The notes under the pieces are model-generated. The model had not been told where the DNA came from, searched no databases, and saw nothing but the letters and a program-made list of their open reading frames with translations. This document shows positions 7,265-47,072 of a stretch of DNA of 64,000 bases, one piece after another. Each line of letters opens with the position of its first letter. Position 1 is the stretch's first letter. A program made the translations under genes and the position numbers. Origin of the DNA: Candidatus Anstonellales archaeon (lineage in GTDB: Archaea; Micrarchaeota; Micrarchaeia; Anstonellales; J096); the NCBI GenBank assembly GCA_038896535.1, contig JAWACY010000001.1, positions 355,111 through 419,110 of the forward strand. The letters are read 5' to 3'.

Positions 7265-7266
7265 TA

Positions 7267-7407
7267 GTAAGAAGGCAATGCCCTTATATATGCGCCTTCT
7301 TACAAACATCCCACCGCTATTATACGCTTGTTGAAGAAGGCAATGCCCTTATAAACATGCCTTCTTACAATCTTCCAACCCTTATTATAAACTTGTTGGG
7401 GAAGGCA
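7267..7407. repeat. Imperfect 65-bp tandem repeat with internal hairpin (two units plus start of a third)
   Basis: GAAGGCA recurs at 7271, 7336 and 7401; unit 1 has the stem GTAAGAAGGC/GCCTTCTTAC. Confidence 0.8.
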
Positions 7408-43838: not shown

Positions 43839-45032
43839 ATGGTTTCTAATCTTGAAGAACTATTAAACAAAAAAAGCATCATAAAAGACAGGAATGCCTT
43901 ATCCCCTCATTTTATCCCTGATAATATACTTTATAGAGATAGCGAAATAGAGGCAATAGCAAGAACAATAGCCCCTGTATTAAAGCAAGAAAAACCAAAA
44001 AATTTATTCATATATGGCAAAACAGGGACAGGAAAAACAACATGTGCTAAATATGTAATAAAAAAAGTAAGTGAGGTAAAAGAACGCTATAACGTTAATG
44101 CAGAATTTCATTATCTAAATTGCAGGGTTTATGATTCAAGATATAAAATAATGCAGAATTTCTTGAAAAACTATTATCCAGAAATAGAAAAATCTGGTTT
44201 TGGTCTTCCATATTTTTATGAGAAGCTTATCGATGCACTATCACAAAATAAATATATTGTATTAGTACTTGATGAAATAGACATAGTTAAAGACCTTGAT
44301 GAACTTATATATACACTTATAAGAATAAATGATGAAGCAAAAAATGGTAGCTTATCAATTGTTGGCATATCAAACAAGCTAAGCTTCAAAACAAAACTTG
44401 ATCCAAGGAGTAGGAGCAGCCTTTATGAGACAGAAATTATATTTTCACCATATGATGCTATACAATTGAGGGGCATATTAGAGCAGAGAATAAAGATTGC
44501 CTTTGAGCCAAATACAATAGCAGGCAATGCGATAAGCTTAATATCCGCTATAACTGCTCAAGAAAATGGGGATGCAAGATATGCATTAAAACTTTTACAT
44601 ACTGCTGCTGAAGTTGCAGAGCAAGAAGGCAGCAATATAGTAGAGGAAAGGCATGTCGAAAATGCAAGAAGGCTCGTTGAATATGACATAGCTGCTGAAG
44701 CGATAAAAACATTGCCATTACACCATCAACTTATTCTTTATGCGCTGGCAAAGATGACGCTTAACAATAAAAATAGGGCATTAGTTGATGAAGATGGGGG
44801 CTATTTCTTTTCTGGCGATCTTTATGATTTCTATACAAAAATGTGCAGGCAGTTTTATAAAAAACCAAAATCCGCAAGGAGTTATAGAGATTACATAAAT
44901 GAACTTGAAAGCCTTGGCCTTGTATCGACTGTTTTTACAAGCAAAGGCATAAGAGGGCATACAAGATTGATAAAGATAGGCCATAATGCAGAAGACATTG
45001 TCAATATAATAAATAAAAGATTTGACTTGTAA
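43839..45032 (+). CDS. cdc6: Orc1/Cdc6 replication initiator
   Basis: YGKTGTGKT, YLNC, VLDEID, LDPRSRSSL, FSPYDAIQL, GDARYAL, C-terminal wHTH. Confidence 0.95.
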   Translation: MVSNLEELLNKKSIIKDRNALSPHFIPDNILYRDSEIEAIARTIAPVLKQEKPKNLFIYGKTGTGKTTCAKYVIKKVSEVKERYNVNAEFHYLNCRVYDSRYKIMQNFLKNYYPEIEKSGFGLPYFYEKLIDALSQNKYIVLVLDEIDIVKDLDELIYTLIRINDEAKNGSLSIVGISNKLSFKTKLDPRSRSSLYETEIIFSPYDAIQLRGILEQRIKIAFEPNTIAGNAISLISAITAQENGDARYALKLLHTAAEVAEQEGSNIVEERHVENARRLVEYDIAAEAIKTLPLHHQLILYALAKMTLNNKNRALVDEDGGYFFSGDLYDFYTKMCRQFYKKPKSARSYRDYINELESLGLVSTVFTSKGIRGHTRLIKIGHNAEDIVNIINKRFDL

Positions 45033-45106
45033 ATTTATTTGTAAATTTATTTGGTAAATGATAAAAATATGATAAAAATATAAAAAAATTAAAAATAAGC
45101 AAGAAA

Positions 45107-45121
45107 CGAAAGGTTTAAATA
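45107..45121 (+). promoter_or_regulatory. BRE plus TATA box upstream of the structured RNA candidate
   Basis: CGAAAGG-TTTAAATA; similar form upstream of genes at 5578 and 40344; predicted start about 45144. Confidence 0.6.
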
Positions 45122-45144
45122 TTTTACGCTACATATTTATTTAG

Positions 45145-45264
45145 GACCAAACTGAAAGGCTGAAAAAAGAACTGGTAACAGTGTTCTGCCCTTTTCAAGG
45201 GAAATCCTTGAAATAGGGATCTTGTTTCCCTTCGGGGAATCAAGAAGTTAAGCCTTTCGGGGTC
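45145..45264 (+). ncRNA. Candidate structured non-coding RNA (four-way junction), family not recognised
   Basis: GC-rich island; closing helix GACC-AAA-CTGAAAGGCT / AGCCTTTCGG-GGTC with a G-U pair; three inner hairpins with GUAA, GAAA(U) and C(UUCG)G loops; T-tract after. Confidence 0.7.
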
Positions 45265-45569
45265 AAACTCCTCTTTAAATTTTTTATTTAAATTTTTTAT
45301 AATCTTAGATGAGCAACTTATTGACAAAGTTCTTGATATCTTGATAAAAAGATTATAGAAAAAATATTATACATATATAAAAATATGAGATATGAAAATA
45401 TTATAAAAATGCAGGGTAAAATATATTGGAGTTAGCAATAGGTAATATTTTATATTATCAACAAACTGAAAATAGAATGAGAGAAAGAACGATACAAAAA
45501 AGATATTACTACAATATAAGATAAGCTAATAAAGTAAAAATTTTTTAACTGTTGGATATAAATTAAATT

Positions 45570-47072
45570 ATGTTTCTTGAACTTGTTGACACGACATTAA
45601 GAGATGGAGAGCAGGTTTATGGATTAAGCTATAAAGCAGAAGAGAAATTTATAATAGGAAGGTTCATACTGGAAAAGTTGAGAATTGATAGGCTCGAATG
45701 CGCTAGTGCATTAACTGAGAGCGATAAAAAAGCAGTCAGCATGCTCTCAACATTTGCAAATGATTATTTAAAAAAGCCTTTTTGTGTTGAAGTGCTGGCA
45801 TTCTTGAATAAAGAATCAATAGACTGGGCATATGATGCTGGATGCAGGACTGTTAATATATTGGCAAAGGGCTCTAAGCAGCATTTAACAAAACAACTTA
45901 AATTAGATGAAAAGGGGCATAAAGAACTTATAGAATATGTATTTAATTACGCAAAAGACAGAGAAATGAGAGTAAATATTTACTTAGAAGATGTATCATA
46001 TGGAATCCAAGAAAACAAGGATTATGTTTATGGTTTACTGGAATTCCTTGAGGGCCTTGAGCCAAACAGAGTTATGCTTCCAGATACAAGAGGGATTTTA
46101 TGCCCAAGCCTTGTCAATGATTTATTTAAACCAGTATTAAAAGAATTTAGCAAACTTATTTTTGATTTTCATGGCCATAACGATTATGGGCTTGCATTGG
46201 CAAACAGCATTGAAGCAGCAAACATAGGATTTAACGGTATTCATGGGACAATAAATGGCATGGGCGAAAGGACTGGCAATACTCCTTTAGAAGAGCTTAT
46301 AGTAGCAATAAAGGATTTCACAAAAAGAAGGGTGAATGCTCAAGAAAAACACTTATATACTGCCAGCTTGATAGTGCAAAAATTCTCAGGAAAAAGTGTA
46401 GCTTTCAACAAGCCTATTGTTGGTGAATATGCATTTACACACACTGCTGGCATTCATGCGGACGGAGAAAGAAAAGCAGGCCTTTATACATCAAGGCTCA
46501 GCCCAGCAAGATTTGGCAGAGAGAAGCAATTTTCAATAGGAAAATTATCAGGAAAGGCAAATATAAAAGTTGTGCTCGAAGAGCTTGGCATAAATATAAG
46601 TGATGAAGAGGCAAAGGTATTAAAAGAGAAAATTTCTACACTTGCCGGAAAGAAATTAATTATATCAGAAGCTGATATCATATATTTATTGGGGGACATA
46701 AAGAAAGATAAAAACATAACAAGATTAATTAAAATACATGACATAGGCATAGAAAAACAGAATGAAAAATATGTGTGCAAAATGAAAATGTCAATAAAAG
46801 AAAATGAAGAAATATTTGAAGAAAAACAGGACAATTTATTATTATGTATATTAGAAATAATAAAAAAAGCAAGCAAAAAACACGGTTTTTTTGTTCCTTT
46901 TATAGATGGTTATGAGATAGCAGATAATGGAGGGCTTGTATTGACAACAATAAAATGTAAGAGCAGGAAAGGAAAAATATTCAAAACATATGGAAATGAT
47001 AGTGATCTGATAAAATCGTTTGCATCTGCTATTGAAAAGGCAGTTAACTACGAAAACATTGCTTTAAAATAA
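45570..47072 (+). CDS. cimA: Citramalate / 2-isopropylmalate synthase (DRE-TIM; resembles bacterial CimA)
   Basis: DTTLRDGEQ, KGSKQH, NIYLED, RVMLPDT, FHGHNDYGLA, GMGERTGN, HTAGIHADG; substrate not certain. Confidence 0.8.
   Translation: MFLELVDTTLRDGEQVYGLSYKAEEKFIIGRFILEKLRIDRLECASALTESDKKAVSMLSTFANDYLKKPFCVEVLAFLNKESIDWAYDAGCRTVNILAKGSKQHLTKQLKLDEKGHKELIEYVFNYAKDREMRVNIYLEDVSYGIQENKDYVYGLLEFLEGLEPNRVMLPDTRGILCPSLVNDLFKPVLKEFSKLIFDFHGHNDYGLALANSIEAANIGFNGIHGTINGMGERTGNTPLEELIVAIKDFTKRRVNAQEKHLYTASLIVQKFSGKSVAFNKPIVGEYAFTHTAGIHADGERKAGLYTSRLSPARFGREKQFSIGKLSGKANIKVVLEELGINISDEEAKVLKEKISTLAGKKLIISEADIIYLLGDIKKDKNITRLIKIHDIGIEKQNEKYVCKMKMSIKENEEIFEEKQDNLLLCILEIIKKASKKHGFFVPFIDGYEIADNGGLVLTTIKCKSRKGKIFKTYGNDSDLIKSFASAIEKAVNYENIALK

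Follow-up and report, generated by a model that had tools for sequence, protein, structure and literature searches.

What is encoded in the short, GC-rich stretch of DNA that separates cdc6 from cimA in the archaeal genome G000? The initial annotation, which was based on the letters and their open reading frames, described it as a four-way-junction RNA next to cdc6 with a promoter of its own. Two roles were proposed there, a new archaeal noncoding RNA or a leader that regulates the downstream cimA, carbonic anhydrase and aRF1 genes. We have analyzed the fold, the conservation, the genomic setting and the possible relatives of this element. From the combined results we think it quite probable that the locus is a free-standing gene for a structured noncoding RNA of about 125-140 nt, an accessory RNA that would act in trans as a protein-bound scaffold.

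The RNA locus in G000

The window is the whole stretch of DNA that was analyzed, 64,000 nucleotides corresponding to G000:C1:355111-419110, and positions without a contig name refer to it. G000 is an archaeal genome of 0.75 Mb with 32% GC, present in five contigs and 91% complete. The features of the locus are collected in Table 1. A GC-rich island in AT-rich DNA, as it had been described, is readily seen: the GC content of the element is 0.41-0.46 (0.44 in a 128-nt window) versus 0.12-0.20 in the flanks. Between the RNA and cimA lie 300 nt of spacer at 18-24% GC and two T6 tracts. The RNA is present as a single copy in G000.

Contigs from four other DNA runs of two studies, all labelled as hot-spring metagenomes, bridge the locus (44762-45374 and 44909-45306) with 0 differences. 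Thus, the locus is no assembly artefact. These contigs are identical at the locus and therefore carry no natural variation for comparison. Directly behind the cdc6 stop codon, the spacer contains AT-rich tandem direct repeats (window 45036-45097), with GTAAATTTATTT occurring twice and TGATAAAAATA two to three times. This repeat DNA has a GC content of 12% and belongs to the G000-specific spacer.

Table 1. Position of the RNA gene, its helices, its putative signals and the neighbouring genes in the window.
Feature	Position	Strand	Basis or remark
Cdc6/Orc1 gene	43839-45032		upstream neighbour of the spacer
cdc6-cimA spacer with RNA gene	45033-45569 (537 nt)		such a spacer only in G000
Putative archaeal promoter: BRE-like CGAAAGG (45107-13) and TATA box TTTAAATA (45114-21)	45107-45121	+	sequence
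CGCTAC hexamer between TATA box and RNA start	45127-45132	+	also in G003 copy
Predicted transcript, start A45143/G45144, end at first T6 tract	45143-45285	+	fold, promoter spacing, T tracts
P1 5' strand: GACC, AAA bulge (45149-51), CTGAAAGGCT	45145-45161	+	MFE
J1/2, A-rich junction strand GAAAAA	45162-45167	+	MFE; GAAAA kept in G003
P2 hairpin, 7 pairs, GUAA loop, GU bulge	45168-45187	+	MFE
P3 hairpin, 12 bp, bulged U, GAAAU loop	45189-45218	+	MFE
P4 hairpin, 10 pairs, C(UUCG)G loop	45220-45245	+	MFE
P1 3' strand: AGCCTTTCGG GGTC	45251-45264	+	MFE, homolog alignment
Two T6 tracts, likely archaeal terminator	45280-85 and 45293-98	+	sequence
Citramalate/homocitrate-synthase-like gene (cimA)	45570-47072		downstream of the spacer; followed by beta-carbonic anhydrase and aRF1 genes

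The element folds into a stable four-way junction

The minimum free energy (MFE) structure of the plus strand at 45143-45270 is a junction in which P1 closes three hairpins, with a folding energy of -52.9 kcal/mol. Dinucleotide shuffles of the same sequence (n = 200) reached -32.0 ± 3.4 kcal/mol, and none of the 200 was equally stable (z -6.09). All four helices of the initial annotation, P1 to P4, are recovered in this structure at the positions given there. P1 is composed of 4 + 10 bp (45145-48 with 45261-64 and 45152-61 with 45251-60) and includes one U-G pair; the RNA of G000 contains just one G-U pair. With helices of 14, 7, 12 and 10 bp nearly every base is paired. The junction strands have lengths of 6, 1, 1 and 5 nt, that is, two A/G-rich strands and two 1-nt linkers. 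Beyond the folded core, which extends to C45264, the 3' tail is pyrimidine-rich. The four-way junction was still the MFE structure when folding was carried out at 55, 65 and 75°C.

As a genome-wide control, the 165 non-ORF regions of G000 provided 4716 windows of 128 nt, which were folded on both strands. The RNA locus ranked 8th in fold stability, preceded only by six pieces of 16S/23S rRNA and by 5S rRNA. It outranked all tRNA loci despite its lower GC content (0.44 versus 0.49-0.68). The minus strand of the element had a z score of -4.14.

A homolog in a congener retains the structure

A BLASTN search with the element against 41 relatives returned only a 25-nt chance match within a coding region of G012. 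Two covariance models were used: R1 has the window sequence with its fold as sole input, and R2 is the two-sequence model of G000 and G003. Among 61 genomes, R1 identified one full-length homolog, G003:C47:4698-4823(-), with 77.5 bits and an E-value of 3e-17. G003 is a congener of G000 and has the Cdc6 that most resembles the G000 protein (69% identity). The DNA of the two copies is 67% identical. Folded alone, the G003 copy adopts the same P1-P4 junction with -60.8 kcal/mol and a z score of -5.28.

In the alignment fitted to the model, each of the 43 pairs is formed in G000 as well as in G003, and 15 of them are changed on both sides. Shuffling of the partners resulted in 7.4 ± 2.0 both-side changes, and none of 500 shuffles reached 15; with the partners displaced by 1-3 columns the number fell to 0-2. 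The double-changed pairs are spread over all helices (P1 3/14, P2 2/7, P3 5/12 and P4 5/10). RNAalifold, applied to an independent MAFFT alignment, predicted 35 pairs with nine double changes and recovered P1, P3 and part of P4. The covariation comes from two sequences, hence from one evolutionary comparison, and is to be read as good evidence, not as a statistical test. Within this frame, the check for compensatory change that had been suggested with the initial annotation turned out in favor of the RNA, with 15 of 43 pairs double-changed at 100% pairing. The structure is kept through compensatory changes, which is the generic criterion for a stand-alone structured noncoding RNA.

The unpaired nucleotides kept in G003 are the AAA bulge, GAAAA of J1/2, UAA of L2, AAA of L3, the bulged U and the UUCG loop, and all these conserved stretches are at most 5 nt long. 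The loops had been brought forward as signs of a functional RNA. This holds for the UUCG loop; in G003 the P2 loop does not have the GNRA form and is one G shorter. The copy in G003 contains approximately nine G-U pairs, and its reverse complement folds poorly (z -1.10). The selected structure is thus the RNA read from the promoter (+) strand, the strand that had been proposed from the loops and G-U pairs.

Promoter and ends of the predicted transcript

We infer that 45107-45121 has the role of a promoter. From the end of the TTTAAATA box to G45144 the distance is 22 nt, close to the ~23 nt that had been noted, and this spacing is that of other RNA genes of G000: TTTAAAAA lies 23 nt ahead of the first base of the 5S gene, and TTTAAAAG lies 22 nt ahead of the SRP RNA gene. 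The CGCTAC hexamer is the sole upstream block that is conserved between the spacers of G000 and G003 in the spacer alignment. This sharing may simply reflect common ancestry. Downstream of the RNA, the two spacers have a short AGCAACT block in common and otherwise share only CGCTAC.

Oligo-T is a termination signal in archaea. The T-tract that had been seen downstream consists of two T6 tracts (Table 1), and termination is likely to occur there, at 45280-45298. From the fold, the promoter spacing and the T tracts, the transcript is predicted to begin at A45143/G45144 and to end at the first T6 tract.

The RNA gene is independent of its neighbours

The genomic context was compared within the genus. 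In G001 and G002 an ORF of the size of cimA begins 40-60 nt past cdc6, which leaves no room for the RNA. On contig C35 of G003, the orthologs of cdc6 and cimA abut without the RNA between them. The RNA of G003 is found on contig C47 instead, with a gene for an Ig-domain surface protein upstream, and a Rieske gene (at ~170 nt) and a gene for a PP-loop (TtuA-like) ATPase downstream. The G000 ortholog of this ATPase is located ~12 kb from the G000 RNA. Among the genomes searched, the location next to cdc6 thus holds for G000 only, and in G003 the neighbours are the Ig-domain and Rieske genes. As the RNA is sited between unrelated genes in G003, and as cdc6 and cimA abut in the congeners, the RNA has moved to another place and would possess a promoter and a terminator of its own. 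In G000, the RNA together with ~400 nt of AT-rich flank has evidently come between two genes that otherwise touch.

These data bear directly on the proposal of a leader, that is, a cis-acting 5' leader, riboswitch or attenuator for cimA, carbonic anhydrase and aRF1. The RNA does lie upstream of cimA on the same strand, and the compact junction of several helices, with T tracts behind it, looks like an aptamer with a terminator. However, the cimA orthologs of G001, G002 and G003 follow cdc6 directly and lack the element, and the G003 copy precedes the Rieske and PP-loop ATPase genes. In G000 itself, 300 nt of AT-rich spacer and the two T6 tracts separate the RNA from cimA. The conserved unpaired nucleotides are few, unlike those of known aptamers, and no riboswitch family was matched. 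We therefore abandon this part of the initial annotation and consider a leader function highly improbable.

The location beside cdc6 would also suit an element that acts as DNA, for example a cruciform, a binding site for a protein or a structure associated with an origin. AT-rich tandem repeats just upstream (45059-45097) and the good folding of both G000 strands would be in line with this. Against it, the G003 copy is located away from cdc6, and its roughly nine G-U pairs are mismatches in DNA or on the other strand (reverse strand z -1.10). The cumulative GC skew of the contig is lowest at ~325 kb, away from the locus at 400 kb, and a promoter of the stable-RNA type is found at the correct distance. 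A role at the DNA level is extremely unlikely on these grounds.

Among the genomes searched, the RNA occurs in two

Searches for further copies of the RNA gene were carried out with the models and with sequence patterns. In 19 genomes from the family and in 151 from the order, R2 detected G000 and G003 only. The initial annotation had proposed to collect homologs near cdc6 or cimA in related genomes; R1 revealed nothing under an E-value of 1.3 near 29 cdc6 loci of relatives. With filters off, the best score of R2 at the TtuA-like and cdc6 loci of G001, G002, G005 and G006 was 12.1 bits. A pattern based on P1 hit six loci in metagenome contigs and two in genome contigs. The sole model match among them, L064, was equated with the G003:C47 contig by its same length and same score. 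Two patterns run on viral contigs hit at least 127 loci, and among the matches listed none fit the model. A looser pattern matched 17 of 401 genomes of the phylum, seemingly no more often than a reversed-pattern control, and the 15 matches beyond G000 and G003 all failed the model.

Consequently, the RNA is found in two of the four genomes of the genus and in none elsewhere among those searched. The congeners that lack it, G001 and G002, are each 88% complete, and the comparison of these assemblies shows it to be an apparently non-essential, dispensable, accessory gene. Changed position and absence in congeners together support a free-standing, relocatable and dispensable RNA gene.

The same distribution raises the possibility that a mobile element, virus or plasmid carried the RNA as cargo or left it behind as a remnant, and such an origin would be compatible with a functional RNA. 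It occurs in two of four genomes of the genus at differing sites, and it arrived in G000 with ~400 nt of AT-rich flank between genes that otherwise abut. In G000, a 26-nt inverted repeat with 81% complementarity brackets promoter, RNA and terminator. This repeat is low-complexity A/T, however, and a bracketing inverted repeat is missing in G003. The flanks in G000 match elsewhere in the genome only by short A/T-rich stretches, an integrase or transposase gene is adjacent to neither copy, and the viral-contig patterns yielded no fit to the model among the matches listed from at least 127 loci. Such an origin is unlikely. A MITE-like unit was rejected as well, since the flanks are unrepeated and G003 has no bracketing inverted repeat.

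Comparison with known RNA families

The free-standing RNA gene was next compared with known RNA families, using the 4227 covariance models of Rfam 15 and the gathering score as criterion. In the whole window, only four tRNAs were detected at gathering scores, all away from the element. A permissive scan of 45000-45400 gave a best E-value of 0.48, for an AT-rich snoRNA model on the minus strand that lay mostly outside the element, and the best E-value for the G003 copy was 4.3. The failure to match known RNA classes by inspection is thereby confirmed by an Infernal-type check, in which no model reached its gathering score.

Individual classes were also examined. Neither ARAGORN nor RF00005 called a tRNA at the element, a T-loop is missing, and junction strands of 6, 1, 1 and 5 nt are unlike the cloverleaf. 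C/D box sRNAs have a C box RUGAUGA and a D box CUGA that form a K-turn; TGATGA is absent in 45143-45270, and the 3' strand of P1 does not offer the GA for sheared pairs beside the AAA bulge. H/ACA sRNAs are hairpins in which a pseudouridylation pocket is combined with a K-turn or K-loop, and their lower stem is followed on its 3' side by an ACA box. Here the interior is a four-way junction, and the 3' tails, CAAACUC in G000 and CAAUCCC in G003, contain no ACA. With respect to Y RNAs, the TROVE/Ro domain (PF05731) was not found in G000 and no Y RNA model matched. When the sequence is read against the BHB splicing motif, the 4-bp helix has its bulges on the wrong side. An anti-Shine-Dalgarno tail was discarded, CUCCUC of G000 being lost in G003. 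A small protein on the minus strand was considered and rejected too: one frame is open in both genomes, and its products are ~20% identical by eye versus a DNA identity of 67%. No ORF of at least 60 aa is present at the element in G003, and all three plus-strand frames hold stops in both genomes.

The 5S rRNA and SRP RNA of G000 are encoded elsewhere. The true 5S rRNA is on contig C2 (73.1 bits). With 260 nt the SRP RNA, at G000:C1:127822-128081, is short, and its 75.8 bits are below the Rfam gathering score of 96.5. 5S rRNA is a three-way junction. The RNA gene shares with the 5S and SRP RNA genes of G000 the TTTAAA[A/T][A/G] box at a distance of 22-23 nt upstream of the first base, a similar fold stability and a helix that closes 5' and 3' ends. 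It differs from them in being dispensable in congeners.

SAM-I and yybP-ykoY are four-way-junction riboswitch aptamers. They resemble the RNA in size (~100-125 nt) and in having a P1 that closes three helices; the RNA differs in that it matches no Rfam model, has an unconserved downstream gene and very few conserved unpaired nucleotides. The nearest class are the Hgc RNAs, which were reportedly recognized as GC-rich islands by Klein, Misulovin and Eddy in 2002 ('Noncoding RNA genes identified in AT-rich hyperthermophiles'). Like these, the RNA has a stand-alone gene in an AT-rich thermophile (32% GC) with a local rise in GC, a promoter-like box and a T-tract, has a stable fold and is functionally an orphan. 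Unlike them it matches nothing in Rfam, has a closed four-way junction, shows a GC rise weaker than that of tRNAs and is found, among the genomes searched, in two of one genus. The Hgc families are presumably part of Rfam and hence were among the models scanned.

Titles and abstract openings of the literature on Micrarchaeota and 'non-coding RNA' describe no such RNA. Matching no Rfam family, the RNA represents a new family among orphan genes for structured sRNAs, and the Hgc class is nearest to it. The proposal of a new archaeal noncoding RNA is upheld by this lack of a match, the 15 of 43 double-changed pairs, the strand asymmetry and the 5S/SRP-like promoter.

RNase P RNA is undetected in G000, which encodes HARP

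RNase P RNA was not detected in G000. A six-frame search of G000 for Rpp29, Rpp30 and Pop5 (PF01868, PF01876 and PF01900) found nothing at E <= 0.1. HARP (PF08745, PIN_5) is present in full length at C3:41917-42453 with 173.8 bits. We counted HARP and RNase P RNA (RF00373 at E <= 0.001) in 41 genomes including G000. In family f1, the 13 genomes of genera g1, g4 and g5 have HARP and gave no match to RNase P RNA, the four genomes of g2 and g6 have RNase P RNA and no HARP, and the two genomes of g3 and g7 have both. In other families of the order, RNase P RNA is found in all 22 genomes and HARP in three only. Hence, three genera (g1, g4 and g5) appear to have HARP in place of the RNase P ribonucleoprotein. 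RNase P RNA would then be undetected in G000 because the lineage carries the protein enzyme. According to a 2019 review, every archaeal genome then examined encodes at least one protein of the RNase P ribonucleoprotein, and HARP is mostly missing outside Euryarchaeota (PMC6380272).

In sister genera, RNase P RNA is short, with lengths of 179-241 nt. Unusually short ones (179-218 nt) are located at G004:C15:75899-76077, G005:C50:21713-21920, G008:C6:6279-6496 and G019:C41:14598-14788. In the Rfam alignment, much of the specificity domain is missing in the short sister-genus RNAs, and several score below the gathering threshold. The core motifs GAGGAA.UCC, ACAGAAACG, GAUGAAACG and GAAUGC are visible in the RNase P RNAs of G019, G009 and G005. 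None of these motifs is present in 45143-45270.

These results are relevant to the question whether the RNA could be a diverged or reduced form of a known RNA, be it a relic of RNase P RNA, a Y-RNA-like or tRNA-like molecule, or a derivative of SRP or 5S RNA. Such a relic would be conceivable because RNase P RNA is undetected in G000 and its genus, because the forms of its relatives are already short (179-241 nt), and because a closing stem with three arms is superficially cloverleaf-like. Like archaeal RNase P RNA (RF00373), the RNA is small and structured, has stable tetraloops and is closed by a long helix. Unlike it, the core motifs, the model match, the partner proteins and the synteny are all missing: RF00373 did not match even at E <= 10, Rpp29, Rpp30 and Pop5 were not found, and the flanking genes of the RNase P RNA of five relatives map to other G000 loci. 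In addition, g4 and g5, which likewise have HARP only, lack the element. We rejected a relic of RNase P RNA for the missing motifs, the lack of synteny and this absence. For the remaining classes, 5S and SRP RNA were located elsewhere, no tRNA was called, and no TROVE/Ro protein was found. We regard descent from a known RNA class as very unlikely.

Other loci of G000

Several further loci were noted in G000. Of the 40 tRNA genes predicted by ARAGORN, 11 are directly followed by a common 3' flank, (t)aGTAAGAAGGC..., of ~25-30 nt, including window 7265-7295 behind tRNA-Leu-UAG. This flank may be a trailer or a processing signal. Two islands of 60% GC, C1:283145-283245 and C1:324888-324980 (minus), are tRNA-like with an insert in the T-arm region. 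They were missed by ARAGORN and by RF00005 at E <= 0.01. Strong folds at modest GC are found at C1:320141-320268 (+) and C1:63943-64070 (+), with -47.0 and -45.8 kcal/mol per 128 nt. Finally, C2:48000-48120 contains a G-rich island of GGGTTGGGG-type repeats without a match in Rfam.

Discussion

The free-standing RNA gene would be transcribed from its own BRE/TATA on the plus strand, starting at the base of P1 without a leader and ending at oligo-T. The product would fold as a heat-stable four-way junction from a 14-bp P1 with the conserved AAA bulge and hairpins of 7, 12 and 10 bp. Near-full pairing and conserved unpaired parts of at most 5 nt argue for a role as protein scaffold and against an antisense seed or a ligand pocket. 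From this anatomy we infer a rigid scaffold that would be recognized by its shape, be bound by a protein and act in trans, and that would not function by antisense pairing or ligand sensing. The analysis brought up neither a partner protein nor a target or a conserved neighbour.

DPANN archaea have very small genomes with little non-coding DNA. Given these small genomes, a fold stability near that of rRNA, and helices that are kept through double substitutions, the RNA is likely to be under selection. A further-reaching interpretation is that it forms the core of a new ribonucleoprotein or is a small catalytic RNA of hot-spring, ultra-small symbiotic archaea, recently acquired, mobile within the chromosome and accessory, with a function in defence or host interaction. 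We consider this improbable. If true, it would mean a new functional RNA class, beyond another orphan motif.

The finding is limited in value, since only two of the genomes searched contain the RNA and a functional lead is lacking. To specialists, the apparent replacement of the RNase P ribonucleoprotein by HARP in three genera of the family may be of greater interest than the RNA. What the RNA gene contributes is a new and well-defined RNA family in a group of archaea whose RNA biology is almost unexplored, and with it a target for metatranscriptomics and co-culture work.
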